A stretch of 63,032 bases of DNA, taken from a virus. Taxonomy: Duplodnaviria; Caudoviricetes. The DNA lies in IMG/VR virus record IMGVR_UViG_3300010373_000009, positions 1 through 63,032 of that record; one strand, given 5' to 3'. The translations under genes were made by a program, and so were the position numbers. Shown here piece by piece: positions 4,367-63,032 of this stretch. The notes below the pieces were generated by a model. It made no database searches. It saw only the letters and a program-made list of their open reading frames with translations, and was not told the origin of the DNA. Position 1 is the stretch's first letter. Every line of letters starts with the position of its first letter.

Positions 4367-5391
4367 TAGGCTACTCCTCCGGCCGCGCTAGTCCCGCTTG
4401 GGGCATTAAGCGCCGAGTATATGCCAATCGCTTGCGAGAGCGGCGAAGCCGAGTAAGCCGGTGCATATCCCGTGCCCGCCGTCGTCGAGCTATGAGGCGT
4501 CGTCGCCGGTGTCGCAGTACCCGAAAGCATCTGTTGCAGCCAGGAAAGCTGCTGATACGGCCACTGCTGCTGTTGCTGGAATTGCGTATTCGCCGCGTTA
4601 AGGTTCTGCTGATTAAGCTGTTGCTGTTCGAGCCCGGCCGTATCGAGCGCGCCGTAACCCTGCAAGGCAAGGTTCTGATTAAGCTGTCCGAGCTGACCCA
4701 TCGTGTTCGCGCCTTGCAGCCCGAGGACACCCTGTTCGTATCCGAGACCGCCCGCGATCTGGCCGAGCGCTCCGGTTTCGGACGCCGCCTGGAGGCCCGC
4801 ACCTTGCGCCTGACTATAGCCTTGAGAGAGCGCCGAGTTCGCAGTATTCTGAATATTCTGAGTGATCTCGTTCGCACCCTCGTTCGCGGCCCTCTCGTTC
4901 GCCGACGATCCGAACTGGCCTGCGCGGGTAAACTGGTTATTGATCTGCGGCTGAAGCTGCTGATTCCAATACTGCGTCGCCTGCGTCTTGGCTTGGTTAA
5001 TTACGTTCTGCTCATACGGATTCATCATCGCCGCGGTCGGCGAGAGAGCGCTGGAAACGTAATTCGAGGCTGTCGGCAGATACCCCGTTGCCTGAGAGAG
5101 CGCGGACGGATTCGCCGCACTGCTCGCCATCTGCTGCGCTTGCGTAAGCGCGGGCTGGTATTGCCCGATCGCGCCCGCAATACCCTGCTGGGCCTGTGTC
5201 TGGTACGGAGTAAACCCCGCGACCTGCGGCACCGGCGATGCCTGGTAGGGCTGCGATGCGACTGACGCGGCCGAGGAGAGAATCCCCTGGGCGTAATCCT
5301 GCAACCATTGCGGGGTCTGCGTCGCCGACTCGCCGTACTGGGTTGTCGAACTCGGCGGCTGACCTTGGAACAAGAAGTCGAGCGCGCTCAT
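4366..5391 (-). CDS. Putative pilot/ejection protein (Gln/Ala/Gly-rich)
   Basis: 341 aa with PQW..Y, VAGFTP.Q and NPY..NVI motifs and QQQWPYQQL, typical of podovirus DNA-transfer proteins. Coupled to neighbours. Confidence 0.6.
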   Translation of the reverse strand: MSALDFLFQGQPPSSTTQYGESATQTPQWLQDYAQGILSSAASVASQPYQASPVPQVAGFTPYQTQAQQGIAGAIGQYQPALTQAQQMASSAANPSALSQATGYLPTASNYVSSALSPTAAMMNPYEQNVINQAKTQATQYWNQQLQPQINNQFTRAGQFGSSANERAANEGANEITQNIQNTANSALSQGYSQAQGAGLQAASETGALGQIAGGLGYEQGVLGLQGANTMGQLGQLNQNLALQGYGALDTAGLEQQQLNQQNLNAANTQFQQQQQWPYQQLSWLQQMLSGTATPATTPHSSTTAGTGYAPAYSASPLSQAIGIYSALNAPSGTSAAGGVA

Positions 5392-7640
5392 TTCTGCTCC
5401 TTACCCTTTCCGAGATACGACTCTGGGGGTTTGGCCTTCATGAACTGCTTCCCTCGGACTAACTGCCGGCCGGCATGCTTGCGCAGATTCTCACGGAGCT
5501 GATCGAGCCGCCGCGCACCCGCCTCATTCGATCCGTTGCCGAGCATCGCGACTGTACCGGCGTCCATCACGTATTCCCCATCCGAGAGCCGGGCCGGGAT
5601 GTCGTCGGAGGTACCATCCCCAGGACCCTCGACATAGTGCTGATTCGAGCCTTCCGCGAAATCGAGCGCCCCACCGTGCGACATCACCGTCGGTTGCATC
5701 GGTGCTCCCATCATAGGAGTGCCTGGTGAAGACGGAGAGGCTCCCGGTTCTTGTGAGGCCGGCGAGAAGCCTTCGACGTAAGGGAGCCGGTTATTAGTAA
5801 AGAACTGCTGTTCGGGGTGCTCCCCGTAGGTATACCAGTCATAGTTCGACGGGAACTGAACCTCTTGCCTCTGGTAGGTTGGGGTCGAATACGGGTGACT
5901 AGGCCCCGACGCCATGCCAGCAGGCGGCGCGATCGGCTGTGCCTGCTTCGAGTTCGTCGCGCCGGTTGCGGCCCCGATGAGGGGCAAAAGCCACCCGTAG
6001 CTCTTCGCAAGTTGGCCTAGGGTTTGCCCGATGTTCGACCCTCCGGAACCGCTGCTGCTCCCTAGGAGATGTGAAAGCCACGAGCCGCTTGAGCCGGAAC
6101 CCCCACCCGTTGCTCCCGTGCTATCCATAGCAGTCTGATCGGCTCCGCTCGAATCAAAGCCCGTCGAGAAGTCCGACCCATAAGGATTCGTCGGATCGAG
6201 TGAGTAATCGATCGAGGTTAGATCGGGGTAGGAGTCGCCGCCGTCCCCGCTAAGCGAGAAGTTAAGGTCAGAGCCGTCACCTCCCCCTCCGAGGTCGAAA
6301 TAATCCGACGTATCGCCTCCCGTATCGAAGTGGGGAAGGGCACTCTGCATTCTCTTCTTCATGCTTCCACCTTCAGCGGCGCCTTTCTGCTTCGCCGCGA
6401 GATATGAGGCTACTCCCGCTCCACCCGCAGGGGTAGAGTTCATTGAATCAAAATATCCAACGCTCGCTCCGCCGTAAGGAGTCCCACGGATCAGAGCTTG
6501 CGAGGGACCCGCGTTTAATCCGAGGTAGGGCTGCAATTCTGGGTCGGTCTGACCCGCTATGCCAATCTGGGATTGATTCGTGAGATTCCCAGACATATAG
6601 TCCCCGACGAGACCCTCAAGCGAACCGTTTAGGATACCGGCTTCTCCACTTGCCGCGCCGGTAATCCCCTGACCGCCCGTCTCTTTCGAAAGCCACGGCT
6701 GAACTACACCCGAGTAGACGTCAGCCGCGGACTCGCCGGGAGTGATCTGCCCGGCATTATACGCCTGGTTGATCTGCCCCGCTATCTGTGTAAGGAGATT
6801 CTGTTCTCCCATGCGCCCGAAGGTCGCTTCGATCGGCTGCTCGCTATTCCCGCTGTGATTCTTCGCATCCATCGCCCCCGCTAAGAGCTGGTAATCCTGC
6901 GAGGGAGAGAGAGTGGAGAGAGCCGATTGAGCTTCCTGCGGACTCTGGTTGTAGAGCTGAGAATATTCCCCGCTTAGATTGTGAAGCTCGTCGCTCTCCG
7001 GATCGTGTCGGCCACCCCCGAAGGCCGAAGAGAGCGCGCCAGCCGCGCCACCTACGAGACCTCCAATTAATGTACCGATTCCGGGCAGTACAGATCCTAT
7101 CGCGGCGCCCGTCTCCGCACCTTGCATGGCATCGGAACCGGTATTTCCCGACTGCCAGTTCTTCCCGAAGTTATAGAGATCAAGGGGGATCGCCGCATAG
7201 CCAAGACCCTGCATCCACGGCCCGGCAGTTGCCGCGTCCATAGCTCCGGATTCAACGGCTCCCTGTAAGCCGAGTCTCCCGAGATCGAGCGCGCCCTGAG
7301 CCTCGCCGGTCGGAGTCCCGCTCTCGAAGCCCTGATAAGCACCGAGCGCACTACCCGCCATCCCGGTATAGGGTGAAACGCCGGGTTGGTTTCCAGTAAA
7401 CTGACCATAGAGATTCGCAGCGTTTATTCCAGCCTTACCGTATCCCTCCAAGCCCCCCTGGGTTAACCCAGAGTAGATGCCTCCCGCCTCGTTGATATCT
7501 CCGAGACCCGTATTGATCTGAGAGAGCGCCGAGGGTCGGCCATAGGTATACGGTCGCGGTTGATAGCCGCTCGACGGGTACCCGTTCGACTGATAGGTCG
7601 TCGGCATGCTCAGATCGAGTTGTCCGGCAGGTGTACTCAT
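5388..7640 (-). CDS. Gly-rich putative internal virion protein with C-terminal GPGDGTSDDIPARLSDGEYV module
   Basis: 750 aa with a glycine-zipper segment (GAAIGSVLPGIGTLIGGLVGGAAG). The C-terminal GPG.GTSDxIPAxLSxGEYV motif recurs in phage virion proteins. Confidence 0.65.
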   Translation of the reverse strand: MSTPAGQLDLSMPTTYQSNGYPSSGYQPRPYTYGRPSALSQINTGLGDINEAGGIYSGLTQGGLEGYGKAGINAANLYGQFTGNQPGVSPYTGMAGSALGAYQGFESGTPTGEAQGALDLGRLGLQGAVESGAMDAATAGPWMQGLGYAAIPLDLYNFGKNWQSGNTGSDAMQGAETGAAIGSVLPGIGTLIGGLVGGAAGALSSAFGGGRHDPESDELHNLSGEYSQLYNQSPQEAQSALSTLSPSQDYQLLAGAMDAKNHSGNSEQPIEATFGRMGEQNLLTQIAGQINQAYNAGQITPGESAADVYSGVVQPWLSKETGGQGITGAASGEAGILNGSLEGLVGDYMSGNLTNQSQIGIAGQTDPELQPYLGLNAGPSQALIRGTPYGGASVGYFDSMNSTPAGGAGVASYLAAKQKGAAEGGSMKKRMQSALPHFDTGGDTSDYFDLGGGGDGSDLNFSLSGDGGDSYPDLTSIDYSLDPTNPYGSDFSTGFDSSGADQTAMDSTGATGGGSGSSGSWLSHLLGSSSGSGGSNIGQTLGQLAKSYGWLLPLIGAATGATNSKQAQPIAPPAGMASGPSHPYSTPTYQRQEVQFPSNYDWYTYGEHPEQQFFTNNRLPYVEGFSPASQEPGASPSSPGTPMMGAPMQPTVMSHGGALDFAEGSNQHYVEGPGDGTSDDIPARLSDGEYVMDAGTVAMLGNGSNEAGARRLDQLRENLRKHAGRQLVRGKQFMKAKPPESYLGKGKEQK

Positions 7641-7864
7641 AGAGACATCGCCCGGTTAAAAAGGAAAGCCCACTCTCGCCAATCTGAGAAGACACTCGCA
7701 AGCGGCGGTCGCTTGCGCGCGATCGAGGGGACCCGGAGAATCAGAGCAGCCCATTCCTTCCAGTCCTGGTCCTGAGCGGGAATCGGCACATCATCGACCA
7801 TAGGGAGGCGCCCGCGAGTCAGTTCGGCCCACTCCGTAAACTGCATGTAACGCGGATCGATCAC
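7637..7864 (-). CDS. Small Trp-rich hypothetical protein
   Basis: 75 aa (FTEWA...DWKEWA...FSDWREWA) with 4-bp overlaps to both neighbours. Confidence 0.7.
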   Translation of the reverse strand: MIDPRYMQFTEWAELTRGRLPMVDDVPIPAQDQDWKEWAALILRVPSIARKRPPLASVFSDWREWAFLFNRAMSL

Positions 7865-9384
7865 TGGGTAAATCTCCCGGTCGTCGGTTCGATATGAACC
7901 ATGGCACGTCCGTACTCGTAGTCACCTCCGAGGACGTTAGATTCAAACTTGAAGCGCAGCAGGCGATCTTCAGCCTTAATCTCAATCATCTGATCGTCTT
8001 GCGCAGTAACCGGAGGCTGCGGGAAGTCCTGCTGAGCTAACTGTGTCTCGGCTACGCGCGTATTCGCCCGGCCGAGAAGAGTCATCCGCAATGTCCCCCT
8101 CTGGTTAAAATCGGGTTCTACGATCGAGACACGGAAAGCCTTGTCCTCCGGCTTCGGCGCCGAGAGCGGCGAAATCGTATGAGTGGTAAAAGACGAGCGG
8201 ATCGGGAAGACCTTGCCAGGCCGCACCTTATCGACCCCGATCTCGTGTTGCCAGAGGGTAAAGCCTGTCTGTGTGGCATCGACATCGCACATGAAGGGAC
8301 GCTGAAAGACTTTTGCGAATATCGCAGCCGACCGGCCCCCATCGGGTAGAGGCGTATTGTACCAGATATTTAGTCGAGTGTTATAGATTACAGCATGATT
8401 GCACTCCTGAGAGTTACCGAACGGGAAACACCACCAAATCTCTCCCCAGGCAGGCACTTTGAACGCAAAAACCTTCTGACGTTGAGCAAAATTAAGATTC
8501 TTGAAGAAAAAGTTAATGTTCAGGTTATTCGGCAGCTCCTTGACGATACCGTTATAGAGCATGAACCGATCGACTCCGGCCCAGTAGTAAATCGAGTCAA
8601 ACTCGATAGCCGACCGAGATGAGAGGATCGAGACGCTATCCGAGATCGTCGAGAAATCAAACGGGATACCCTGCGTCAACGAGGCATCGAAGGTCAGTAG
8701 GACTAACGCATCTAAAGACCAGAGCAGTCCAGCGGGACCATTCGAACCCGCAAGGGGGAGGCCGCAGACAATCTTCTGATCCGTAACGAACGCCGAGTCA
8801 TTCGGAAGGGTAGGGTCGTTGACCTTCGAGACATCGACACGTCCGGAGTTAGAGAACGCGATAAAGTACGGCGGTAGAGCTATTACTCCACCACTTACCG
8901 GGTCCATACCACTCGCGACGAGTAAGCCGGCCTCATTCGCTACGCCGTAATAGAAAGGAAGCTCAGCACTGCTCGCGATATCAGTCAGGTTTTTGCCTGG
9001 ATGCGCAATGATATAGGTCGAACCCCCTACCTCGTTGTAGAACTGGTCGAGCATCCAGAGAGTATTGGCATCGGGCACGTAAGCGGCCGGTGTCCGATCT
9101 ACCATATTGCCGGGAGAACCGTTTAGGTCCGTCTGGACCTGGAGGATGTGCCCCTCACTCCCTAGATGCAGGTAATTCGTCGCGTCCGACATATAGGACT
9201 CGATCGCGCGCACCACCTCAGGGAGATCGGCCGTAACCTGGGTAAATCCCGCCATCTTGCGGGGAAGTGCCCGAGCATTAAAACGACACCACTCCCCGTC
9301 TGTATAGTTCTGACCCTCGAATAGGGTCGAGTCCTTCTTGATACCCGGTTGAGAGACGAGCGGTATCGGTTGCGGCGTAGTCAT
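7861..9384 (-). CDS. Tail nozzle / packaged-DNA stabilisation-like protein (probable beta-propeller)
   Basis: 507 aa, beta-rich, with GEIWWCFP...NHAVIYN. Position between fibre and ejection genes matches P22 gp10/T7 gp12-like genes. Confidence 0.6.
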   Translation of the reverse strand: MTTPQPIPLVSQPGIKKDSTLFEGQNYTDGEWCRFNARALPRKMAGFTQVTADLPEVVRAIESYMSDATNYLHLGSEGHILQVQTDLNGSPGNMVDRTPAAYVPDANTLWMLDQFYNEVGGSTYIIAHPGKNLTDIASSAELPFYYGVANEAGLLVASGMDPVSGGVIALPPYFIAFSNSGRVDVSKVNDPTLPNDSAFVTDQKIVCGLPLAGSNGPAGLLWSLDALVLLTFDASLTQGIPFDFSTISDSVSILSSRSAIEFDSIYYWAGVDRFMLYNGIVKELPNNLNINFFFKNLNFAQRQKVFAFKVPAWGEIWWCFPFGNSQECNHAVIYNTRLNIWYNTPLPDGGRSAAIFAKVFQRPFMCDVDATQTGFTLWQHEIGVDKVRPGKVFPIRSSFTTHTISPLSAPKPEDKAFRVSIVEPDFNQRGTLRMTLLGRANTRVAETQLAQQDFPQPPVTAQDDQMIEIKAEDRLLRFKFESNVLGGDYEYGRAMVHIEPTTGRFTQ

Positions 9385-9387
9385 CTC

Positions 9388-11631
9388 TTAATTCCCCACC
9401 GCAATCCACTGCCAGGTAACGGTTGGATCGAAATTCGAATCCGGATCGAGCTTATCACCATTATAGTGAAATCCCGTCTTCGTTACACTAGATACGCGAG
9501 GCACCCAGCTATTATTACCACCCCCGCCGTAAGAAATGGTCACCGCTGTGCAGTTATTCGGAAAGGCGGGAGAGAAGTTAATTGACCCCGAAGCCGAAGC
9601 CGCCGCCGAGAACGTGCCTCCCATCACGATACCGGATGATCCGGAGATCGCCGCGAGCACGTAGGCTGTCGTAGCAATCTGGGTAGTATCCGTGCCCGGG
9701 GCGGCGGTCGGCGCGGTCGGAGTGCCCGTTAGTGCAGCGTCGGTAAGGATGGCCCCCGCATACTGCGTGACCGCCCCCGCAGGCACCTGCGCGGCAGTGA
9801 CCGACCCTGCGAGAGCCGATAGAGTAAGCTGTGCTTCGAAGTTGGCCAGGGATATTTTCTGGAGTTTACCATCGAGAGCGTTATCTTCAACGAACACGGA
9901 CCCGATTGTCGGATTCGTCTGCCCACCCGTCTGCAAGAACGCGCCATTTATTAGTCCATTTAAGTCGATCGAGAGGCGCGTAGCGTTAGCCGTCTCATCG
10001 AAGATGTCGAAGACGCCAGCACCGGCCGCGCCCGATCCGATGCGCCAGACTCGATTACCCGCCTCCGCTCCTTGCAATGCAAGCTCACCAGCCCCCGCAA
10101 GAGCTTGGATTGAGAGACCTACCTGGCTCGTCGGCGAGAGGTCGAGTAGCGAAGCACCGCCGAGCACCATCGTCAGATTGCCATTCGTCCCGAACTTTAG
10201 CGCGGCATTCGCCCTATTTAGGACGTTACCCGTGTTATCCGCGCCATTCTGGAAAATCGAAAGGTCATTCGTACCGGCCGTTCCGTTATTGCCGGTCAAG
10301 GAAAGGAGCGCTACTCCACTCGCTGCGGTCGAAAGGATCTGCAAACCGGGTGATGTCCCTGTCATACTGCTAGCAGAGACGATGCGCTCACCGATGCCGT
10401 TTAGTAACTGGTTGATCGTAACTCCTGGGTTCGTATCCCCCGGAGCATTGATCACCACGTGTCCACCGCCGTCTACGGTTAGGCGCTGCACACCGTCCGT
10501 CGAGAGTCCCATTTGATCTTCTGCGACCTTATAGAAGCCCGTATCGGGGTCGGATGAGAAGGCGATCGACGGAGCCGCCGCGGTTCCATCGGAGAAACCA
10601 GTTGCGCCGAATGTAACCGCCGTATAGACCTCTACCCCATCACAGAAGAGGATGTTCCGCGCTGATTGGTTAATAAGCGGTCCTGTATTGCCTGCGGTCG
10701 CGACCGAGAGGGAGAAGATTCCGGTAGTTTCGTTATCTACCCAATACTGCTGGATGGTGTTCGGGACGATTACGGTCACGTTACCGGCGAGCGCACCGGT
10801 AAACCGATAGGCAATGCGATTTAGCTCTACACCGGAGAGGACATAGTTTCCCGTCTTTCCTCCGAGGTTAATCTGAATGAAGTCGAAGATCGAATTTAGC
10901 TGTTGTCCGAAACCGACCGTAACCCAGTTCTGTCCATCGGTCATGACGATCGCCGAATCATCCGGCGCAAACGTCTTCGAGGTGTTATTATCAATCGTAC
11001 TCGGTGCGGTCGGATCGAGCGTCAGTAACCCCGTACCTCCGTTCTTAATCAGCACGTAGAAGCCGGCACCGACTGCGGACGCGGACGGCAGCGTAAACGT
11101 ACCGACACCCGAGGTCCAAACGACGACGGAGGCCCGATCGGATGCCTGAATATCGTAGTCCGCATTCTGGTCGTTTATTAGGTACTGACCATTTAAGGTC
11201 GTCGTGATTGCCTTTAACCCGTAGCCTGCGAGAGAGGCCGCGTTCGCCGAGGAAACCCCGACTCCGTACTGGAAGGTTCTCCACGTACCTGCGAGCGTCG
11301 AGTTATCCGCTAGGTAAATCTGCCAGACCTGCCCCGGAGCGAGAGTAACGATCAGATTACCAACAGCATCGAGAATCGAGAACGAGAAGGCACCGATGTT
11401 ATTAAATAGTGCCGTATATCCGGTCGAGGTCGATCGGGCATCGGAGAGCTGTACCGTTAGACTCCCCTGAGAGGGCAGAACTTCAACGATATCAGCGACA
11501 ATGTTATTGCCTCCCGGGCTCTGCTCCGTAGGCCAGCTAAGGGTGACATTCTCGTTCAGTGCGAGTGAAACGAACGTCGCATTGGACGGATAGATTAGTG
11601 TCCCGCCAAAGGTCTCGTTAAATTGCGTCAC
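9388..11631 (-). CDS. Tail fibre / tail-associated protein
   Basis: 747 aa with fibre motifs GTAAAPSIAFSSDPDTGFY and ALTGTPTAPTAAPGTDTTQIATTAYV, and a gp53-like C-terminus (FSPAFPNNC...WQWIAVGN). Confidence 0.8.
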   Translation of the reverse strand: MTQFNETFGGTLIYPSNATFVSLALNENVTLSWPTEQSPGGNNIVADIVEVLPSQGSLTVQLSDARSTSTGYTALFNNIGAFSFSILDAVGNLIVTLAPGQVWQIYLADNSTLAGTWRTFQYGVGVSSANAASLAGYGLKAITTTLNGQYLINDQNADYDIQASDRASVVVWTSGVGTFTLPSASAVGAGFYVLIKNGGTGLLTLDPTAPSTIDNNTSKTFAPDDSAIVMTDGQNWVTVGFGQQLNSIFDFIQINLGGKTGNYVLSGVELNRIAYRFTGALAGNVTVIVPNTIQQYWVDNETTGIFSLSVATAGNTGPLINQSARNILFCDGVEVYTAVTFGATGFSDGTAAAPSIAFSSDPDTGFYKVAEDQMGLSTDGVQRLTVDGGGHVVINAPGDTNPGVTINQLLNGIGERIVSASSMTGTSPGLQILSTAASGVALLSLTGNNGTAGTNDLSIFQNGADNTGNVLNRANAALKFGTNGNLTMVLGGASLLDLSPTSQVGLSIQALAGAGELALQGAEAGNRVWRIGSGAAGAGVFDIFDETANATRLSIDLNGLINGAFLQTGGQTNPTIGSVFVEDNALDGKLQKISLANFEAQLTLSALAGSVTAAQVPAGAVTQYAGAILTDAALTGTPTAPTAAPGTDTTQIATTAYVLAAISGSSGIVMGGTFSAAASASGSINFSPAFPNNCTAVTISYGGGGNNSWVPRVSSVTKTGFHYNGDKLDPDSNFDPTVTWQWIAVGN

Positions 11632-12347
11632 GGTTCGTTCCTTACGGCGGCGCGATCGGCCGCACGCTGCAAGTCCTCGGTATTAGTCGCACTAAGCTCA
11701 TCCTGATAATATTGCTGCCAGGTCTGGATGCGTTCATCGTTTTTTAGGAATGGTGTTGCTTCGAGCAGCGCTCTGTAGAGAAGAAGGTTCGGCGCGAACT
11801 GGGTTAGCCAATTCGTCTGGTTAGTGTTATCGAGGAGCGCCGGTAGCTGATAGTAGTTAATCTGCCACGGGTACGGGAGGTCCGGAGTCGGTACGATCAA
11901 CCAATGCAGATAGTCATAGTCCGCGTAGAACTTCGGTGCCCCGGTCAAAGTCAGATCGGGCCAGTAGATCTGGCAGTATTCGAGAGAGCGCGGGAGCATA
12001 GTTGTCCGGAACTCGCCACCGGTCGGCGCAATAACGAGCAACGTGCCGTCCTCGGTTGTTAGATTATTGCGTCGCTCCGTCGCCAGATTGGTAGCGTCAG
12101 AAGCATAACTCATCGACGTTGTCTGACGCCACCGATCTGGTTTCGGGTAGACGGCGAGACTTCCCTGCATCTGCGAGATCACTGATACCAGAAAGCCCTG
12201 GATTTTTAGGCGACGCGCGATAGCACGCTCCGCCAGATTAATCAGAGTCGGCAGGTTCTGGTTTACGATCACATCGGACTTCGTACCCCGTTCCAAGTAC
12301 GATTGAAGCAGAGTTTGCAGGGAGGTAAATGTCATCGCCGCCGGCAT
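11628..12347 (-). CDS. Putative head-tail adaptor protein
   Basis: 239 aa with PTLINLAERAIARRLK...PTPD..Y...YY and TNWLTQFAPNLLLYRALLEA..FLKNDERI, the pattern of podovirus adaptor-like proteins. Confidence 0.7.
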   Translation of the reverse strand: MPAAMTFTSLQTLLQSYLERGTKSDVIVNQNLPTLINLAERAIARRLKIQGFLVSVISQMQGSLAVYPKPDRWRQTTSMSYASDATNLATERRNNLTTEDGTLLVIAPTGGEFRTTMLPRSLEYCQIYWPDLTLTGAPKFYADYDYLHWLIVPTPDLPYPWQINYYQLPALLDNTNQTNWLTQFAPNLLLYRALLEATPFLKNDERIQTWQQYYQDELSATNTEDLQRAADRAAVRNEP

Positions 12348-12351: not shown

Positions 12352-12579
12352 TTACTCCTCCGTTGCCTCTGCCGTTCCCCCGGGCGGATCGGCGGAAGGG
12401 GTACCTACTTCCTCCAGACTCGACTTCGGAGGCCGCGTCGGCTGAATGCGTGCCGCGTTCTCCTCTCTCTGGAGCGCTGCGAGTAACTGAGATAACTGAG
12501 CTATCTCGTTCCCCTTGTAAGTGATTCGATCGCTAAGGAGCAACGCTCGAATCCCAGCGATCTCGACCTGACTAAGCAT
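12352..12579 (-). CDS. Hypothetical protein
   Basis: 75-aa ORF coupled to flanking genes. Confidence 0.55.
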   Translation of the reverse strand: MLSQVEIAGIRALLLSDRITYKGNEIAQLSQLLAALQREENAARIQPTRPPKSSLEEVGTPSADPPGGTAEATEE

Positions 12580-13078
12580 TTCGGATGGTCACCTTTGCGC
12601 CGAGGGCCGAAAGCACGACTAAGAGAGTATTCGGCGTAACCTGTTGGGGGGGCACGATCAACTTCGGGATGCGCTTGACTTCTTCGAGCGCCCCAGTTTG
12701 GAGTGCCGAGCAAATCCAGTAGCCATCTGTATGATCGGCCTTCCCCGTTAGGAAACCAAGAATCGCCGCCTTATCGTACTTCTGCCCGATTTGAGAGATA
12801 AGCCAGCCCTGCCAGAGACTAAACTCTATCGACGTACAGGCTAGCTCAACGATCGCCCGCCGCTTCCAGCGTTCGTACTCCGGAGGCCGGATCTGGACTC
12901 CGGCGGGCTTACCCCCTACGACGTCATTGCGGGCGCCGAGGAGGGAGCCATTAGGCAGCAGTGCATCAACATGCGAGTAGCCGCCATAGCCTTCCCCGTA
13001 CCAGGCAATCGCCTCGGAGAAGAGGTCATCTCCCAGGACGAATTGCCACCGCATGCGGGCCAACAAAGGCGCGTTCAT
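12572..13078 (-). CDS. Permuted papain-like (NlpC/P60, YiiX/YaeF-type) cysteine amidase/peptidase
   Basis: His before Cys: YSHV near the N-terminus, IGQKYD, then WICSAL and VTP. This is the circularly permuted NlpC/P60 signature. Confidence 0.75.
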   Translation of the reverse strand: MNAPLLARMRWQFVLGDDLFSEAIAWYGEGYGGYSHVDALLPNGSLLGARNDVVGGKPAGVQIRPPEYERWKRRAIVELACTSIEFSLWQGWLISQIGQKYDKAAILGFLTGKADHTDGYWICSALQTGALEEVKRIPKLIVPPQQVTPNTLLVVLSALGAKVTIRNA

Positions 13079-13434: not shown

Positions 13435-13625
13435 TGCTTGACTCCTGGGTTGACGTTTGGGAAAAAACTCTGGTGCGCCGCAGTCGCGATAATGCTCGCG
13501 ATGGTAACGGCGGTAGTCGTGTGCGGAGAGAGCCCATCCACCCCGTTTAGCATCTGGGCAGCGACGGTCACGAAGGTAAAGAAACGGTCACCGTTCTGCG
13601 CAAACCATTTAAGGAACGTACTCAT
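13431..13625 (-). CDS. Putative holin
   Basis: 64 aa with two moderately hydrophobic segments, immediately after the endolysin. Confidence 0.45.
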   Translation of the reverse strand: MSTFLKWFAQNGDRFFTFVTVAAQMLNGVDGLSPHTTTAVTIASIIATAAHQSFFPNVNPGVKQ

Positions 13626-13975
13626 TTGTGGACTCCATCCGGAGTAATCGAGTAGTGATCGAGATCGACGAGGCCGTGGAAGTCGCCCCCCCAGCAGTAG
13701 TTCGGACCGAGACCCTTCCAGAACTCGCCGAGGACGCGGTACGGTTCCGTATCGGTCTGGTAAACCTCCTCCTTAAACAGGTTCAGGTCGATGGCCAGGC
13801 GCTCCTCGTGCAGCGAGTGAACGACTCCCGAGCCGTGGGCGGCATTCCACTTTGCCTGCTCCTCGGTCCTCCATGCCTCGCCGAGCGTTACACCGAAGCC
13901 CTGAGACTTGGCGAACTGGAGTAGCTTCGCGACACTCTGCGCAAACTCTTGCTGAAGGTCGAGTAGATGGCTCAT
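13622..13975 (-). CDS. Endolysin, M15-family (L-Ala-D-Glu-type) zinc peptidase
   Basis: GEAWRT..Q, SLH...LAIDL, WGGDF and DLDHYS motifs. Confidence 0.88.
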   Translation of the reverse strand: MSHLLDLQQEFAQSVAKLLQFAKSQGFGVTLGEAWRTEEQAKWNAAHGSGVVHSLHEERLAIDLNLFKEEVYQTDTEPYRVLGEFWKGLGPNYCWGGDFHGLVDLDHYSITPDGVHK

Positions 13976-16749: not shown

Positions 16750-17685
16750 CTAGCGGGAGCGCATACGACCGCCCCTGGCGGCTAGACCGGGCGGGGGACC
16801 TACCGGGGCCGCTCCCGGGGGCATCGGACCGCCAGGGGCCGGTCCCCGGGGGCCTGCGGCGGCATTCCCGAGGGCCGCGAGCGCTTGCAGGGCGCCCGGT
16901 GGCGGTCCGGACGGCCGGGGCCTATGCCGGGGGGCGGGGTGGTGCTTCCCGTGCCCGCCACGGGCGTAGAGGGCGCCTCCGGCGTTAAAGCGGTTGATTG
17001 TTCCCCCGGTCGCGTAATCCGGCGAGTTCGCCGGGATCGAGGTGTCATCATGGATATGACCTCCCTCGGCATGGTGGAACTTCGTCTTCGCATTGATAGC
17101 GAATACATCCTTCCGCTCGCCCTTGACGTTATGTGTTGCCTTGTCGTGGGCTAACTTCTTCCGAATCGCGCTGACCGGAATCTTCTTTCCCTTCGAAACT
17201 CCCATATCACGGTGGAGGGAACCCTCGTGACCCTTCTTGATATGGATGCCACTCTTCTTGCTGCGACCTCCACTCCGATAGCTCTGGGTCTCGTCCGGGT
17301 CGGACGCCTCGGCCTGCATTTCCATCTTCTTCAGTCCCTTACCCTTCGGAGCCTTTCCCCCGTGGTAGTGATGGTGAACGTGGAAATGCTTCTCCGCCTT
17401 GCCGCCCTTCGAGAAGCCGGGCTTTAAGGGCGAGTGACCGCCCGCTTCCTTAAGCTCTTCGGTCGAAGGTACCTCGCGGTGCTGAAGTGCATTGCCATCA
17501 TCGGTCCGAGCATCCGCATGTTCATCGACTCCGTTAATCCCACGAGGCACTCCGTCACGCGCCTTGCCGCCCTTCGCGAATCGGTTGACGGTGCCTCCGG
17601 TCGCGAAGCCTTGCGGAAACCACTGACTCGGGTGCTTGAACGAGTGACCCGACTGCATCTTCGTAGAGTTACGAAAACCTTTCAT
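16750..17685 (-). CDS. Basic His/Lys/Gly-rich low-complexity virion-region protein with repeated aromatic-x-x-GG motifs
   Basis: 311 aa with FATGG, FAKGG, FSKGG, YRSGG, HAEGG, YATGG, FNAGG, YARGG. GGAG RBS upstream. Confidence 0.75.
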   Translation of the reverse strand: MKGFRNSTKMQSGHSFKHPSQWFPQGFATGGTVNRFAKGGKARDGVPRGINGVDEHADARTDDGNALQHREVPSTEELKEAGGHSPLKPGFSKGGKAEKHFHVHHHYHGGKAPKGKGLKKMEMQAEASDPDETQSYRSGGRSKKSGIHIKKGHEGSLHRDMGVSKGKKIPVSAIRKKLAHDKATHNVKGERKDVFAINAKTKFHHAEGGHIHDDTSIPANSPDYATGGTINRFNAGGALYARGGHGKHHPAPRHRPRPSGPPPGALQALAALGNAAAGPRGPAPGGPMPPGAAPVGPPPGLAARGGRMRSR

Positions 17686-21625: not shown

Positions 21626-22546
21626 TTACATGCCCGGCGTGCCGTAGAGGCAGCGGGGATCGGTCCAGCCCGGAATGTACCGCTCCGTGCTCTTATAGCG
21701 CATGGAGTCCGTCTCGAAGTCGCCTTCCATCGACTTCTCCAGAGGCCGGCGCATCGCGAGCTTCAGACCCTGCTTGACATCGGTCTGGATGAACCAGGCC
21801 GTCTGCGAGGTCATGCGCGTGATATTCGCCTGCCCCTTCGACAAGAGCCCCATGCTCTTGACCGGGTTGATGTCGTTGTTCGCGGTCCCGGCACGGAGCA
21901 CGCTCTTCAGCAGTACCTCGGCCTGGAAGACGAGCGACGGACCATCCACGATCTGAAGAGGCACCAGCCGGATGCGCTTACCGTTGTTATCGACGGCGTT
22001 GCGAATCTGGATGAGCATCTGCTCCAGACTGGTCTGCGAGAGAGCGGCGGCGGTGGTCAGCTGATTGCTGAAGCTCCCGGCCGGCGGCGCGAGCGGATGA
22101 TTCGGAGAGATCAGCGGAACGCCGTCGCCACCGGGGAACGACGCATTGAACGCCGTATTCAGGACGTTGGCGCAGAGCGTTTCCTTGGTCTCAATCAGGG
22201 ACTGCGCCAGATGCTCGGCGTAGATGTTCCCGATCCGGATATGGTCTCCATCCTCGACGAGCACCTTCGTCAGTGCGAACGCCAGGCCATACACCTGGTA
22301 GACGTAACGCATGATGAAGAGCACGCCACCCGAGTCGTAGGTCACGGGCGTACCGTCCGGCAGAGCCGGCGCGGCGCCCATGCCGAAGAGGACGGGTTCC
22401 TCGTGATAGTTGCGGGGAGTGCCACGGAACTCGCGGAAGATCATCTTCCACTCGTCGGCACGTTGGTCGTAGATTCCATCGAACGTCTCGTTCAGGATCG
22501 GTTCGACGATTGACCGAAAGTCGGTACTTCTCATCGGAACGGCCAT
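21626..22546 (-). CDS. Major capsid protein
   Basis: 306 aa with AGGAG RBS and high-GC3 codon usage. Motifs GGDGVPL....HP, LSQTSLEQ, AWFIQTD, DFETDSMRYK..ERY..GWTDPR..YG. Confidence 0.85.
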   Translation of the reverse strand: MAVPMRSTDFRSIVEPILNETFDGIYDQRADEWKMIFREFRGTPRNYHEEPVLFGMGAAPALPDGTPVTYDSGGVLFIMRYVYQVYGLAFALTKVLVEDGDHIRIGNIYAEHLAQSLIETKETLCANVLNTAFNASFPGGDGVPLISPNHPLAPPAGSFSNQLTTAAALSQTSLEQMLIQIRNAVDNNGKRIRLVPLQIVDGPSLVFQAEVLLKSVLRAGTANNDINPVKSMGLLSKGQANITRMTSQTAWFIQTDVKQGLKLAMRRPLEKSMEGDFETDSMRYKSTERYIPGWTDPRCLYGTPGM

Positions 22547-22583: not shown

Positions 22584-23246
22584 TCAGTAGGACGACTGCT
22601 GTACCCGATCCGGGTGAGCGGCAATCCGAACCTGGACGATCGTGAAAGCATCGCCCGGTGCGTTATCCGCTCGCTGGGAGAATCCCACGATGGAGAGCTG
22701 GTTGAACTTGCCGGTCTGATCGAGAGAGTTCGCGGTCGTGACGTCGAGCCCAACGGACGAGAACCCGGTGGTTGCGTTACCCGAGTTCGTGTTGTTGGCC
22801 GTAATCGATGCCTGGGCCCCGATGTTAGCCGCCGCGACTGGCCCATTGGCCTGAATCTCGTAGACCATCTCCGGATCGCGAGTAAACCAGGCGACGATGT
22901 TCGTCGCGACGGTGCCCGCAGGCCAGTAGTTCGATACGGTACGCCGGCCGGTCGCGGTCAGCGTAAATTCGACTCCTTGGAACGAACCGATGATCTGCTG
23001 GGCTTTGGTGGAAGCCGCCGCGCCCGCAGCGCCCTGAGCCGGAACGATGATCAGATTCCCCGAGGGGGTCTGAGAATCGATCTGAACGGGGCCGTTCGCG
23101 AAGATGTTGGTGTTGTAGCCCGATGCAATCGTGCCACCGCCTCCGAAGAGGCCACCGCCTGAAGAGTAGGCATTCGCCGCCGGGCGCAGGATGCCAGACG
23201 GCGAATACAGGGGCCGCATCCCAAAAGGACTGTAGTTAAGAGACAT
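22584..23246 (-). CDS. Putative capsid cement/minor capsid protein
   Basis: 220 aa with PFGMRP...DPEMVYEIQA..GN..TGFS. Immediately upstream of the major capsid gene. Confidence 0.6.
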   Translation of the reverse strand: MSLNYSPFGMRPLYSPSGILRPAANAYSSGGGLFGGGGTIASGYNTNIFANGPVQIDSQTPSGNLIIVPAQGAAGAAASTKAQQIIGSFQGVEFTLTATGRRTVSNYWPAGTVATNIVAWFTRDPEMVYEIQANGPVAAANIGAQASITANNTNSGNATTGFSSVGLDVTTANSLDQTGKFNQLSIVGFSQRADNAPGDAFTIVQVRIAAHPDRVQQSSY

Positions 23247-23276: not shown

Positions 23277-23858
23277 CTAATCCCCCCACTGCTCGTCTTG
23301 CGAGAAGGTGGGGACTTCGCGGGCCTTCCCCAGTTCTTCCATCCCAGACTCGATAACGGGAGCTTTGATGCCCCCTCCGCGTTTGGCGGACTGCCCGGCC
23401 TGCTCGGTCGCTTCTGTCATCGCCCGTGCGTAGATAGCTTCCTCCTCGCGCTGCGGAGCGTCGTGATGATTCTCACGCATATACGCTTCGTAGAGGTGAA
23501 GGGGTATCTTCATCGCGATCATCTCGTTTACGGAGATCGCGCCGGGGAAGTCCCCCGACTTCGCCCCGAGATGTTCCCAACCGGGAATATCCGTGGCCTT
23601 GATGATCTCGTATCCGAGACGGACGCGCCGGTGAACCGGGTCGCGCGGGTTCTGAGTTGTCGCCCAGAAGGTATGATATCCGGGAATCTTCGGTAGGTCC
23701 GGAAGTGAGGACTGGAAGAATGAACGACGGAACTCATCAACGCGCTCGTCGTCGGTCAGTTCCCGATTTTCGGTGATCTCGCGACTTTCTGCCGCGCGAT
23801 CTCGTCGGGATTCGGCCATCTCTCTCGCACGTTTTACGGGTTTACGAATTGCTGCCAT
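23277..23858 (-). CDS. Conserved head-region hypothetical protein
   Basis: 193 aa with LP..PGYH.FW...R.RLGYE and AMKIP. Lies between scaffold and capsid genes. Confidence 0.7.
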   Translation of the reverse strand: MAAIRKPVKRAREMAESRRDRAAESREITENRELTDDERVDEFRRSFFQSSLPDLPKIPGYHTFWATTQNPRDPVHRRVRLGYEIIKATDIPGWEHLGAKSGDFPGAISVNEMIAMKIPLHLYEAYMRENHHDAPQREEEAIYARAMTEATEQAGQSAKRGGGIKAPVIESGMEELGKAREVPTFSQDEQWGD

Positions 23859-56385: not shown

Positions 56386-56391
56386 CCTTCG

Positions 56392-58210: not shown

Positions 58211-58217
58211 CCGTGCC

Positions 58218-58250: not shown

Positions 58251-58269
58251 CAACGGGGGAATCTAAGTC

Positions 58270-59763: not shown

Positions 59764-60561
59764 ATGTCGGATATCAGTCTGGATCGAGTAATAGAGGCAC
59801 TGGAGACGTTCCTCCACGCGAATATAGATGTACCTCTCGTCCACCTGAACCGAATCGAAGCGGCGTTCCTACTCGACCACCTGCGCCGCTTACAGCTCTT
59901 TGACGAGCGGGAGACTCGCTTCGCGCAGAGCCGGCACGGCGCGAGCGTTACCGACTGTATAGGGTGGCTATACCTTCAGAAGCGGCACGCCGAGACCGCT
60001 CGCGATACTGCGAGCAATATGGAAGCTCGCATGTTCCAAGCCGTTATCGATCACCTCCAGGAGTTGCATGGCCGACGAGAGAGCGCCGATCGAGCAGCCG
60101 AGGCTAAGCGCCGGGAACAGGAGGAAGCCGCCCGGCGCGCGGAGGCCGAACGGAAAGAGCGCCGGAAGAAGTATGAGGAGGCGAAGTCGAAAACTCAGCA
60201 GGAGTGGGAGGGATTCTTCCGCGACCAATTCGGGTCGGCCTACGCCGACGAGATGTACCGGGCCTTCTATGGTGCAGGCTTTAACTTCAGTGATTTCGCC
60301 ACTGGTCGTCGATCGGGGAGAACTAATAGCTCGGAGGAGTTCCGCTGGAAGCAGGACTCGAAAACTCAAACCCCTCCCCCGCCTATGGGCAAGCTGACGT
60401 GGTACGAGATTCTAGGGGTTAGTGCAAACGCGACGAAGGACCAGATCAGAAGGGCTTATCGTAAGCTCGCCGCGCTACACCACCCGGACCGGCCCGGTGG
60501 CTCGCATGAGAAGATGCGCGATATCAACGCCGCCCGCGACGAGGGTCTAGCCGGCGTGTAG
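59764..60561 (+). CDS. J-domain (DnaJ-like) protein with C-terminal J domain
   Basis: WYEILGV..NAT...IRRAYRKLA..HHPDR.GGS...M..IN.A. Confidence 0.9.
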   Translation: MSDISLDRVIEALETFLHANIDVPLVHLNRIEAAFLLDHLRRLQLFDERETRFAQSRHGASVTDCIGWLYLQKRHAETARDTASNMEARMFQAVIDHLQELHGRRESADRAAEAKRREQEEAARRAEAERKERRKKYEEAKSKTQQEWEGFFRDQFGSAYADEMYRAFYGAGFNFSDFATGRRSGRTNSSEEFRWKQDSKTQTPPPPMGKLTWYEILGVSANATKDQIRRAYRKLAALHHPDRPGGSHEKMRDINAARDEGLAGV

Positions 60562-61213
60562 AGCCGCCCCGCGCTTGGCCGCTTACCAGAGGCATTACCG
60601 TCCGGTCGGTATCAGCATTGACTAGCCCGGTCAGGGTCTGCGATGCTTGCGCGATCCCCTGCCCCCTTCGGAGCTGTTGTGCCGCCTGCTGGACGAGAGG
60701 ATGCTGCATAGCGGTGCGCGAGGAGGTAAGCGCACCGGCCGCGCTCGAAGCATCCCGATTCGCCAGGTGTGTGATTGCGTCCTTGATTGCCGCGATCGCA
60801 TCAGCCCCTAGTCGGACCTCGCCACCGACATCAAATTTCATGCGATAGTTCGGAGCCTTCGCGAGCTTCGCCTGCATCTTCGGTAGCTTCTCCATCGGCC
60901 CCTTTAAGTGGGCGAAGACGTTGCGTGTTACTCCGGCCATCGGAATGTACGGCATCTTCATATGCGTCATATACCCGATGCTTGGCGTATGCATCATCGC
61001 GCGGCCGGCATGCGCCGGGGAGCCGGTAAACTGCTCCAAAGCCGATTCGATCTCGCCACCTTCGGCGTGCATGTACTTACCCTCTGCCTTATCAGCTTCG
61101 TGGAACTCGTGCGCTACGGCGCGCGACGGGAGCTGGTGATTCGGATGCGACGGATGCCATCCGTGATCGATCGCGGACATCAGCATCGCCTGCTTCTTCG
61201 TGGTTGATGGCAT
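60524..61213 (-). CDS. Virion-region protein, last gene of the late arm
   Basis: N-terminal MPS..KKQ..LM.A..H...VA.EF..AD motif, plus HAEGG and FDVGG. Converges on the J-domain gene. Confidence 0.7.
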   Translation of the reverse strand: MPSTTKKQAMLMSAIDHGWHPSHPNHQLPSRAVAHEFHEADKAEGKYMHAEGGEIESALEQFTGSPAHAGRAMMHTPSIGYMTHMKMPYIPMAGVTRNVFAHLKGPMEKLPKMQAKLAKAPNYRMKFDVGGEVRLGADAIAAIKDAITHLANRDASSAAGALTSSRTAMQHPLVQQAAQQLRRGQGIAQASQTLTGLVNADTDRTVMPLVSGQARGGSTRRLDPRRGRR

Positions 61214-61220
61214 AGATCAC

Positions 61221-63032
61221 CTAATGGGATTCGGCTTCCTCGATTACCGGTTCAGAATCGGAGGGCTCCGAGAGCCAGGCCAGGGGTGCCTTCGTCGTCG
61301 GCTGCGATCCGGCCCCCGCCCACCCGGCGAACTGATCGAGAGCTTTGCGAGCCAGGGTACCCTCCTCGGCGAGCCGCGAAGCTGCCATCAGGGGACCGAC
61401 CTGGCCGGCGAGGTCTTCGGCATCTTCCGCGAGGCCCTGTGGCTCGCCGATCCCCGTGTCTTTCTTGACCGCCTGATTAAGCCTACCGAGTCGCGCACTC
61501 GCGTTCCTCGACCACTGGGGATCGAGAGCGTGAATAAGGTCGTGATCGTTCCCGTTCGGCCCGGGCGTGATCTTCATCAGCAATTCTTCGAGCCCGGCCA
61601 TCGAGTCCGGGATCGAGAGCGCTTCGTCTACGATCCCCGGAGGAGTCGCCCCGCTATGAGCGATACCGCCTAAGAAAACGGGGTTTCCGTTCTTATCCGT
61701 TCCATAGAGCTGTTGGGCGCCACGTACCGCAATCCGGGCCTCTGCATCTGGAGATATCTTGATGAGGTCGAGCCCCGGTAGCGGGATGTGATTCCCGTAG
61801 TAGCCGAGACGCTTCGTGTTCTCGATTGCCTGCTTTAGCCAAGCGAGCGCGGAGTGGGTTGATCCTCCGCCCGCGAATGCCTGACGCTTCGAGAGGAAGC
61901 CGGGAGTCAGCGGGTTCCGGATCGGCGCCGGCTGCGCCGTTGCGGCCTTATACAGCGGGTCCTCGGTCGGCTGCTGCAACGGTGACCGCGGTGCATCCGG
62001 ATGACGAGCACCGGCCTCGGCTGCCTGGGCCGCATGTTCGTCTGCAATCTTGTTTAGGTACTTATCTATCAGCTCGCCGATATCCTCGACGACGCCGCCC
62101 GCGCCGTAGGCCGGCATCTGCATTGCGGGCTGATAGAGACGAGCCATCCGATCGAGAGTCATCTCTTGAAGCATTTCAGGGGGCATCTCTTGAAACATCA
62201 TCATCTCGCCTTCCGGTATACCCGGTATCTCCGGCTGTGGAGCGAGGAGGTTCTGTTGCTGCTCCGAGTCGTCGACACTTCCACCATCATCGAAACGTAT
62301 TTCGGCCTCTCCGCCTCTCTTAAAAAAAGGAATGCCCGTTGACTTAATCTTCTCTGCCAGCTCCGGTGTAATCTCCAGTGCGGGGAAGGTCTTCGTTTCC
62401 TGGCCCGTAACGTCGTGAGAGTGTAAACCTTGCCAGATAGAGTGAGCTTGATCTAAGTGCTCTGATAACCTCTGTGCTTCCGTATTCCACTCCCGAGGCG
62501 ACATGTAGTCATTCGGATTCATCGCCGAAATTTCATCCCCGTACTCATCTACATACGGTTCATCTCCGTGCAAACTATGTTCATGGGCTATAGAGTCGTA
62601 ATTATTTAGCGTATCCAGTGCCTTTTGTGCATTAGTAAGATGATGTCGTAGAGAAGCCGTTTCTGCATTAGGACCTCCCATCTGGGTAATCATCCTTTCA
62701 AAAGCACTTCCGTGCCATTCCCCTCCCATCTGATAATGGGAAAGTAGCTCAGAGGGCGTATCATAGCCTAGCTCTTCGAGAAGGGGTATGCGTGGAGCTT
62801 GCACCTCCTCTCGTGAGGCTATCTGCAACGGCAAATCCTTAATGTCTGTCCCGTACATACGAGCGAGCTTGCGGAGTGCCGAAGGGTAGACATTCCCATA
62901 GACATGCTGCATACCGGCATCGCGGCCCTCTTCCGTCCCGTACCTGTCTATCTGGGATTGAGGATCGATCAACGCGAGATAACGGTCACCCTGCTGGATA
63001 GAGTTAAGAAGTTGTTTCTTTAGTTCCAGCAA
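61221..63032 (-). CDS. C-terminal part of the junction-spanning large virion protein (see 1..1137)
   Basis: Frame open to the window end and continuous through the terminal repeat. Contains FKRGG, FDDGG, YGAGG and FAGGG. Confidence 0.85.
   Translation of the reverse strand: MLELKKQLLNSIQQGDRYLALIDPQSQIDRYGTEEGRDAGMQHVYGNVYPSALRKLARMYGTDIKDLPLQIASREEVQAPRIPLLEELGYDTPSELLSHYQMGGEWHGSAFERMITQMGGPNAETASLRHHLTNAQKALDTLNNYDSIAHEHSLHGDEPYVDEYGDEISAMNPNDYMSPREWNTEAQRLSEHLDQAHSIWQGLHSHDVTGQETKTFPALEITPELAEKIKSTGIPFFKRGGEAEIRFDDGGSVDDSEQQQNLLAPQPEIPGIPEGEMMMFQEMPPEMLQEMTLDRMARLYQPAMQMPAYGAGGVVEDIGELIDKYLNKIADEHAAQAAEAGARHPDAPRSPLQQPTEDPLYKAATAQPAPIRNPLTPGFLSKRQAFAGGGSTHSALAWLKQAIENTKRLGYYGNHIPLPGLDLIKISPDAEARIAVRGAQQLYGTDKNGNPVFLGGIAHSGATPPGIVDEALSIPDSMAGLEELLMKITPGPNGNDHDLIHALDPQWSRNASARLGRLNQAVKKDTGIGEPQGLAEDAEDLAGQVGPLMAASRLAEEGTLARKALDQFAGWAGAGSQPTTKAPLAWLSEPSDSEPVIEEAESH
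62910..63032. repeat. Terminal direct repeat, right copy
   Basis: Identical to 1-123. Confidence 0.97.

Follow-up and report, generated by a model that had tools for sequence, protein, structure and literature searches.

The window analyzed here, the whole of IMG/VR virus record IMGVR_UViG_3300010373_000009 (63,032 nucleotides; Duplodnaviria, Caudoviricetes), encodes a phage in which several late proteins carry the same short peptide, with an aromatic or similar residue three places before a Gly-Gly pair. We refer to this peptide as the joint. The controls described below support the conclusion that it is a real, selected short linear motif of virion-module proteins and not a by-product of composition. 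In one carrier, a tape-measure-like ejection protein of 750 residues, it is the same joint that precedes a conserved module in phage tape measure proteins, lambda gpH and T5 pb2 among them. In T5 pb2, a mapped cut lies directly before the core of the joint. We tentatively read the joint as a point of processing or hinging between protein modules.

Enrichment, register, and carriers of the joint

An initial annotation of the window, made from the sequence alone, had described about 19 copies of [FYHM]-x-x-G-G in five late proteins, here named A to E. Every motif that it listed is present in the gene to which it was assigned, and the five proteins actually hold 23 copies (2-9 per carrier, internal or C-terminal). 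Gene calls were longest-open reading frame (ORF) picks, and 85 ORFs were called. The carriers and their joints are as follows.

16750..17685, minus strand: protein A, 311 residues, basic (net charge +26), low complexity, with 24 His and 16% Gly
17593-17607, 17566-17580, 17401-17415, 17356-17370, and 17266-17280, minus strand: joints 1-5 of A
17059-17073, 17002-17016, 16975-16989, and 16954-16968, minus strand: joints 6-9 of A
17578-17601 and 16987-17010, minus strand: TGGT-x-NRF in A
25747..26136, minus strand: protein B, 129 residues, with 23 His (18%) and 20% Gly
26029-26043, 25909-25923, and 25783-25797/25777-25791, minus strand: joints of B
26041-26064 and 25750-25773, minus strand: TGGTRNRY in B, the second copy being its last eight residues
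5388..7640, minus strand: protein C, 750 residues, tape-measure-like ejection protein
6315-6329, 6285-6299, and 5670-5684, minus strand: joints FDTGG, FDLGG, and MSHGG of C, which also has AAEGG
1..1137, minus strand: N-terminal 379 residues of protein D, without joint, in frame across the circle junction
61221..62909, minus strand: C-terminal 562 residues of D, a 941-residue ORF
62721-62735, 62310-62324, 62280-62294, 62094-62108, and 61863-61877, minus strand: joints of D
60524..61213, minus strand: protein E, 229 residues, with joints HAEGG (61055-61069) and FDVGG (60821-60835) and also QARGG

The motifs of A are FATGG, FAKGG, FSKGG, YRSGG, HAEGG, YATGG, FNAGG, and YARGG, plus HYHGG; those of B are YSKGG, FPRGG, and FGGGG, plus HGFGG; and those of D are FKRGG, FDDGG, YGAGG, and FAGGG, plus YQMGG, all five in its C-terminal part. 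Positions 1-123 are identical to 62910-63032, and this 123-bp direct terminal repeat indicates a closed circle of 62,909 bp and thus a complete genome. D is therefore not ended by the window edge but runs as one ORF from 1137 to 1 and then from 62909 to 61221.

Within the five carriers, [FY]xxGG was seen 18 times with 2.4 expected (none of 5000 within-protein shuffles reached 18), and [FYHM]xxGG 23 times with 5.5 expected. Since these proteins had been chosen post hoc, unbiased tests were added. When all 85 called ORFs were scanned for patterns of one residue plus a dipeptide with gaps of 0-4, F..GG took rank 2 among about 40,000 patterns (19 versus 4.8 expected, Poisson p = 8 × 10−7). In the late-versus-early comparison that the initial annotation had proposed, late proteins contained [FY]xxGG 27 times with 7.0 expected and early proteins 4 times with 2.5 expected. 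Block shuffles (10, 15, and 30 residues) reached 27 in 0 of 2000 trials each. Without A and B, 17 occurrences remained versus 6.8 expected (1 of 2000 shuffles). Three places before G-G, F was 3.8-fold, Y 3.0-fold, and H 2.2-fold above background. The excess was confined to one register: in late proteins, a spacing of two residues was found 27 times, versus 9, 9, 8, 8, 9, and 9 times for spacings of 0, 1, 3, 4, 5, and 6 residues, respectively.

The repeats FATGGTVNRF and YATGGTINRF, as well as the two copies of TGGTRNRY, differ at synonymous positions, and the Gly codons inside the motif are mixed, like the background. Selection thus acts on the peptide and not on the DNA, and both a DNA-level motif and a recent duplication are ruled out.

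The carriers had been called non-homologous. This holds for most of them, with E values of at least 0.14 for the other pairs in BLASTP comparisons, but A and B are weakly alike (E = 0.002, 37% identity over 68 residues) and have TGGT-x-NR-[FY] in common. Scans of Pfam, PHROG, and NCBIfam revealed no domain family in A, B, D, or E; for A and B, no Pfam match was obtained up to E = 1, the KGG model PF10685 included. A also contains His runs such as HFHVHHHYH, and its model in the ESM Atlas has a predicted local distance difference test (pLDDT) value of 0.47. Given their His-rich sequences with TGGT-x-NR-[FY], metal binding or a C-terminal recognition signal is possible for A and B. The proposed placement of the motifs at boundaries between compositionally different segments could be followed by eye for D, E, and A.

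Two further proteins encoded upstream of the capsid gene also contain the peptide.

24194-24208 and 24044-24058, minus strand: joints FESGG and FRTGG of a scaffold-like protein (23885..25024)
23154-23168 and 23133-23147, minus strand: joints YSSGG and FGGGG of a Gly-rich protein (22584..23246)

In an alignment of 34 sequences of the scaffold-like protein, its two motifs are only partly conserved, with the F of LPxxF retained but not the first G-G, and they are probably incidental. C and the scaffold-like protein have a longer peptide around one joint in common, ALPHFDTGG versus YLPHRFESGG. Homologues of the 22584..23246 protein occur in 77 of 80 related loci. The portal, nozzle-like, and adaptor proteins have zero joints.

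Conservation of the joint and its identity in tape measure proteins

A related capsid protein is encoded by at least 599 IMG/VR stretches, the 80 best loci of which formed the related-locus set. The two closest relatives with long loci are L002 and L004 (capsid protein 88-89% identical), and orthologues of C, D, and E were obtained from the records behind L002, L004, and L090 (related genomes G001-G003). A orthologues in L002, L003, and L004 have four [FY]xxGG each, and L004 has a B orthologue (139 residues, 21% His) in which YAKGG and HSRGG are kept and the C terminus is TGGTRNRI. The sites of D and E align across three orthologues at an overall identity of 28-50%. For E, the first site reads HAEGG, HAAGG (G002), or MQLGG (G003), and the second FDVGG or FADGG (G002). 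For D, FAGGG aligns with MAEGG, MADGG, or MAGGG, YGAGG with YAGGG or LAGGG, and FDDGG with YADGG.

The last 111 residues of C match 863 database proteins. Across the best 120 of these matches, aligned over their full length, the A/S and G-G columns are conserved at about 90% and the surrounding stretches at 0-20%. Four consensus sites were seen in these orthologues: (i) AxGGxM; (ii) HFDDGGxVxY; (iii) AxGGAL; and (iv) a C-terminal YLxGG. Conservation in homologues, on which the earlier proposal depended, is therefore present, the sites of C, D, and E orthologues forming conserved islands within drifting linkers. The aromatic position is the loosest, being mostly Met and sometimes R, K, N, or Q in C orthologues, so that the core of the joint is small-x-G-G. 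As a consensus we derived [F/Y/M/H]-[A/S/D/K]-x-G-G-x-[V/I/L/M], in which F/Y/M/H stands three places before G-G and V/I/L/M two places after.

In protein C, the last joint is followed by a module that links it to tape measure proteins.

5550..5684, minus strand: joint and conserved module of C (residues 653-697), MSHGG ... GDGTSDDIPARLSDGEYV, common to tape measure proteins

A tblastn search with the C-terminal 111 residues of C gave matches in 57 phage records, mostly annotated as tape measure proteins of sipho- and myoviruses. Twelve of these, hand-picked to spread hosts and thus not a random sample, were read closely. In 11 of the 12, A-x-G-G precedes the module G-x-G-T-x-x-S-D-x-I-P-A-x-L-S-x-G-E-[FYH]-V, directly in 9 and by 9 and 21 residues before GPG in MinM2 and DSL-LC04, respectively; pelagiphage HTVC103P has the module without the joint. 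Three places before G-G, nine of the 11 joint-bearing records carry F or Y, one V, and one R, and in six sampled records a further joint lies no more than about 60 residues away. Tape measure proteins matched by C include those of MP22, JBD30, Douge, Rhodococcus, Arthrobacter, and other phages, and a search of Protein Data Bank (PDB) sequences retrieved the Douge and JBD30 proteins (E = 1.7 × 10−7). In both structures only the last residues of the protein were built (33 and 42), and the module is therefore without a solved structure. In lambda gpH, AGIVHRGEFVF is bracketed by FATGG at 733 and YATGG at 778. The joint is thus shared by siphoviruses of E. coli, Pseudomonas, and actinobacteria and by freshwater podoviruses.

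C itself has the A-x-G-G joint, with the module no more than about 25 residues behind it, near the C terminus of a long protein, as tape measure proteins do, and gives PHROG tape-measure matches at residues 164-210 and 654-707. An AlphaFold2 model of its last 136 residues (50 sequences) is of low confidence (pLDDT 55), with joint and module as coil and helices only at residues 80-86, 91-115, and 125-129. A hidden Markov model (HMM) of the module found C alone among the window proteins (next best E = 1.1; A, 57; B, 85); thus A, B, D, and E share the joint and not the module. A had been considered as a degenerate whole tape measure module, with HAEGGHIHDDTSIPA looking alike by eye, and was rejected at the HMM E value of 57, only the A-x-G-G stretch being aligned.

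The joint also recurs in proteins of the related loci that do not align with A. The virion strand of the 80 loci contains 336 [FY]xxGG with 166 expected. Among the 41 loci with at least 5 kb of sequence after the capsid gene, 28 encode, within 7 kb of that gene, a strongly basic protein (+15 to +48) of fewer than 520 residues with at least three joints. These A-like proteins are not alignable with A and look like strings of small units. DUF6496 was found in four of five tested, with Y-x-x-G-G at or within 5 residues of its start in four of four; depending on the protein, the domain is close to the N terminus, central, or C-terminal. Relatives also encode PcfJ-domain proteins of 948 to 1441 residues between terminase and portal, with 1 to 7 [FY]xxGG; the giant protein of L044 has one, plus three more of the [FYHMW] class, and the others counted have 3 to 7. 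PcfJ was detected in three of four giant proteins tested. PcfJ-like giant proteins with the motif HCVGGYCPD lie at L005:1137-4106, L044:1631-4477, and L048:49-4374. The window has no PcfJ-like gene between terminase and portal.

Across the 80 loci, identity is 77-89% for the capsid protein but only about 30-55% for the portal, scaffold-like, and other virion proteins, and the set of genes that follows the capsid gene is in many cases exchanged entirely. Hypervariable basic modules strung together by the joint beside a very conserved capsid gene point to a cargo system with fast-changing content and fixed punctuation.

Possible roles of the joint: processing, docking, or passive linkage

The cut that bears on the function of the joint is that of T5 pb2, which is cleaved during tail morphogenesis after R1127, as mapped by mass spectrometry (PMC10038345). 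Residues 1128-1131 of pb2 are A-E-G-G, followed by M-M and then by M-G-E-H-G-T-E-V-V, i.e. a joint with its module. This is the only GG in the C-terminal 730 residues of pb2, which has five in 1219 residues; by a rough estimate, a given site has a chance of a few per cent of lying within 3 residues of a pb2 GG. Once ejected, pb2 is anchored in a crevice of the hub protein by the 42-43 residues ending at the cut (PMC10038345). In the JBD30 tape measure protein, residues 1022-1066 have been predicted to form a 'hook', with a speculated role as an anchor inside the baseplate (PMC11445458); by alignment to the PDB chain, this region begins at an FASGG joint. Cleavage of lambda gpH has been known for decades (Tsui and Hendrix 1983), and in the available text of a 2025 structural paper its catalysis is described as unknown. 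The accessible sources place the gpH site only in an approximate range (about 690-730) and name no enzyme. The accessible parts of the T5 and lambda processing papers name no motif at the cut, and those of the literature on P1 and on the Douge and JBD30 structures report no further mapped tape measure cuts.

On the T5, lambda, and JBD30 evidence, we favor processing or hinging between modules, with docking as the main rival. We put the probability of this reading at only about 0.4 because a single site has been mapped and is preceded by Arg. In this view, the recurrent peptides are instances of a single short linear joint, set in Gly-rich sequence that is either disordered or modeled at low confidence. 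They would lie at module edges of proteins that are most probably carried inside the particle and sent out through the tail channel, the putative cargo comprising ejection protein C, D together with E, and two basic, His-rich, lineage-specific proteins, A and B. A host enzyme or a still unrecognized activity may cleave the chain immediately ahead of the small-x-G-G core, the position of the cut in T5 pb2. At a minimum, the chain would flex at the joint, and modules would be released or moved once assembly or ejection has taken place. For the maturation cleavage put forward in the initial annotation, the T5 cut next to A-E-G-G is one data point, but this cut lies before the core and not after G-G.

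Several observations weigh against processing or hinging. The link to cleavage has one mapped site, that of T5, in which Arg and not an aromatic residue precedes the cut. Gel masses cannot discriminate between candidate gpH sites: the predicted fragments are 79.8 + 12.5 kDa for a cut before A734 and 77.7 + 14.6 kDa for one at 710, and the lambda mass estimates fit 710 as well as 733. Cutting A at all nine joints would leave peptides of 2 to 64 residues and a 67-residue tail, and at the conserved C-terminal YLxGG of C orthologues, with only a few residues left to the end, cleavage would have little effect. Two places after G-G, the conserved hydrophobic residue is as compatible with an element that binds or forms a strand as with a subsite for a protease. 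Of the ejection-operon proteins, those encoded at 4366..5391, 2927..4366, and 1140..2927 have a joint count of zero. Caulobacter phage RW has no homologue of A or B, and no joint cluster comparable to either was found among its 33 late proteins, in which nine [FYHMW]xxGG (three of them [FY]xxGG) are spread over eight proteins with a maximum of two each. The assignment of A, B, D, and E to the virion or the ejected proteins is deduced only from gene position and order.

The search for a cognate protease adds to these points. No cysteine protease or other peptidase family was found in the 67 ORFs, of 85 called, that were scanned against Pfam (18 small ones were left out), nor any peptidase family in 14 ORFs scanned against NCBIfam. 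A profile of the 193-residue head protein (23277..23858) gave no match to PDB sequences. As a hidden prohead protease this protein is unsupported: its AlphaFold2 model, of fair confidence (pLDDT 76.6), had no PDB fold match at E ≤ 0.001 (best 0.42), although it might adopt a novel fold. The scaffold-like protein (23885..25024) was likewise rejected as a protease; it has the look of an acidic coiled-coil scaffold, and a PDB profile search returned coiled-coil matches only. Across 31 sequences the 193-residue head protein has 27 invariant residues, including H62, W65, D73, and H131.

The joint might instead dock or anchor the protein without being cut, as a short strand or turn that binds a conserved surface (the lumen of the nozzle/portal channel, a neighboring ejected protein, or the inside of the procapsid) and thereby loads cargo or registers the conduit. 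We regard this as possible, if rather doubtful. Its location in disordered or low-confidence regions (coil in the C model, the low Atlas value for A) and the conserved hydrophobic positions on either side of G-G are as in binding motifs, several copies per protein would give avidity, and the JBD30 hook that begins at FASGG as well as the T5 residues that do anchor in the hub protein are in keeping with it. The T5 anchor segment, however, lies upstream of the joint and not at it, the module is not resolved in either tape measure structure, and three ejection-operon proteins lack the motif. Siphovirus tape measure proteins lie in the tail and never enter the head. The joint in these tail-resident proteins argues against a purely capsid-targeting role, and with it against docking inside the procapsid.

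It is unlikely, in our view, that the joint, a small residue before G-G between hydrophobic anchors, is a mere flexible turn or helix stop that nothing reads and that persists at linkers where modules come, go, and are exchanged. The pattern hydrophobic-x-x-G-G-hydrophobic would fit a helix C-cap, DUF6496 directly follows a joint in each of its N-terminal, middle, and C-terminal positions, and hypervariable carriers contrast with a capsid protein that is 77-89% identical. Against this, A/S and G-G columns at about 90% in 120 orthologues exceed the need of a generic linker, the two-residue register is strict, and early proteins of the same genome lack the pattern (4 versus 2.5). The synonymous divergence between copies speaks against recombination sites at the DNA level.

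The initial annotation had inferred either docking or polyproteins cut at G-G. Taken literally, the second would mean cleavage after G-G by a phage-encoded cysteine protease of the ubiquitin, adenain, or African swine fever virus (ASFV) type or by the product of 12572..13078, which the annotation had called a peptidase. We consider this very improbable. G-G is nearly invariant, some carriers resemble strings of modules, and the basic A-like proteins recall the adenovirus core precursors that are trimmed by adenain. The register, however, is wrong for sites of the ubiquitin/SUMO, adenovirus, or ASFV type: the one-residue spacing [FY]-x-G-G is at background (9), versus 27 for [FY]-x-x-G-G. Residues after G-G are varied, the scans described above revealed no protease, and the sole cut reported as mapped at such a joint, that of T5, lies before the core. 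The peptidase assignment of 12572..13078 goes back to a single weak PHROG match, to a crotonase/ClpP-like family (E = 6 × 10−6); its product had no Pfam match up to E = 1 and no NCBIfam match up to E = 0.01. A BLASTP comparison found no homologue in the 80 motif-carrying related loci, including two with A orthologues that reach the adaptor gene; by this measure the ClpP-like gene appears to be lineage-specific.

Finally, the idea that Gly-rich sequence and aromatic residues yield such pentapeptides without selection, to which the post hoc choice of the five proteins and of the [FYHM] class and the internal repeats of A and B lend some color, is for practical purposes refuted by the proteome-wide rank, the block shuffles, the register control, the excess without A and B, and the positional conservation in orthologues.

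To return to processing at the joint, one could imagine a general 'cut-here' code, in which small-x-G-G-x-hydrophobic after a residue x marks where proteins exported through the tail channel are severed. Its targets would be tape measure proteins, the ejection proteins of podoviruses, and internal cargo modules arranged in strings, and its agent one conserved host activity or self-cleavage. Such a code is a long shot. If it were true, the site of the gpH to gpH* conversion would be named, with a cut predicted before A734, and A-like proteins would be true polyproteins whose small basic modules are set free in the head or the host.

Genomic context and related systems

By gene content, the phage is predicted to be a podovirus: it has an SU10-type adaptor, and PHROG and Pfam scans recognized no tail tube or sheath gene in the window. 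C would therefore measure no tail, and the 'tape measure' label on proteins of the podovirus relatives GB2A, DSL-LC04, and Henu15 was given by similarity only. Late genes occupy the minus strand; the block starts at about 34.7 kb, runs down to 1, and continues through the junction to 60.5 kb.

34177..34743, minus strand: small terminase
29925..31535, minus strand: large terminase
26786..29404, minus strand: portal
25045..25506, minus strand: GroES/Cpn10-like protein, between portal and scaffold
23885..25024, minus strand: acidic coiled-coil scaffold-like protein, 379 residues
23277..23858: head-module protein, 193 residues
22584..23246, minus strand: Gly-rich protein, 220 residues, just upstream of the capsid gene
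21626..22546, minus strand: major capsid protein
13622..13975, minus strand: M15 peptidoglycan peptidase
11628..12347, minus strand: SU10-type adaptor
9388..11631, minus strand: tail fibre
7861..9384, minus strand: nozzle-like structural protein

In the late gene order, a run of ejection-type proteins comes after the nozzle-like gene. The gene for C follows the adaptor, fibre, and nozzle-like genes, and the ejection operon ends with D and E. Among cultured phages, Caulobacter phages RW, GB2A, RLK, and KcrB are the nearest (capsid protein 77% identical). The RW orthologue of C carries MARGG and YMDGG. No virion proteomics for this phage group was found in the literature. The GroES/Cpn10-like gene (25045-25506) is kept in 68 of the 80 related loci, and its RW counterpart is annotated as a co-chaperonin.

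Outside the late genes, several further features were noted. The early region encodes a protein with a Tad2-like Thoeris anti-defence domain (45594-45908; PF11195, E = 1 × 10−23), directly adjoined by a three-repeat KGG stress-protein homologue (45914-46252; PF10685, E = 1 × 10−29). Genes for a VWA-domain protein (57563-58210), a TerC-family membrane protein (58270-58860; E = 7 × 10−44), and a DnaJ-domain protein (59764-60561) are clustered at the end of the plus-strand block as a tellurite-resistance-like set. An 830-residue family A DNA polymerase (48569-51061) combines an N-terminal domain of the uracil-DNA-glycosylase superfamily with a 3'-5' exonuclease, and near it lie genes for a dCMP deaminase (48087-48581), a weakly thymidylate-synthase-like protein (46629-47495), and a dUTPase_2 protein (44044-44652). 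The polymerase with its glycosylase-superfamily domain, together with this set of nucleotide enzymes, may indicate a modified base.

Tape measure and ejection proteins build the conduit for phage DNA across the cell envelope, and their processing is poorly known. As the joint coincides with one precisely mapped cut, a peptide of seven residues could make the question of processing directly testable by mutation and mass spectrometry. It could also be useful for annotating 'hypothetical' low-complexity virion proteins in metagenomes and for cargo engineering. A search that did not extend to subscription journals and supplements found no description of the motif in print.

Among known systems, the double-glycine sites of adenain, ubiquitin-like proteases, ASFV pS273R, and C39 bacteriocin leaders resemble the joint in their invariant G-G and upstream hydrophobic residue, and the adenovirus core also in its basic, DNA-associated-looking substrates. 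Adenain/Ulp-type proteases take the hydrophobic residue at P4, i.e. one residue between it and G-G, whereas in the joint it stands one place further from G-G; a cognate protease was not found in the scans given above. The capsid targeting sequence of T4 is a single N-terminal peptide that is removed by the prohead protease at L/I-x-E. It is likewise a short peptide common to unrelated proteins bound for the head interior, whereas the joint is internal or C-terminal, occurs in 2-9 copies, and is also found in tail-resident tape measure proteins; no prohead protease was recognizable in the Pfam scan or in the AlphaFold2 model of the 193-residue head protein.

A further likeness is to polyvalent proteins, which are large, modular products of late genes thought to be packaged and delivered with the DNA (Iyer et al. 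2017, PMC5512222). Processing into pieces has been proposed for some of them, with autoproteolysis by embedded metallopeptidase domains (PMC5512222). The joint-bearing PcfJ proteins encoded between terminase and portal in relatives resemble this class, whereas D and E of the window have no recognized effector domain. The words 'linker' and 'glycine' have no occurrence in the main text of that study, so the joint is not described there.

The closest parallel is with lambda gpH and T5 pb2, whose maturation yields gpH* plus gpHC and pb2* plus pb2C, respectively, and in which the same joint peptide heads the same module as in C. Like true tape measure proteins, C is a long Gly-rich protein with a hydrophobic stretch and the module near its C terminus, encoded beside tail-tip genes. 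A difference from tape measure proteins is that four other proteins of this phage carry the joint in many copies but lack the module.

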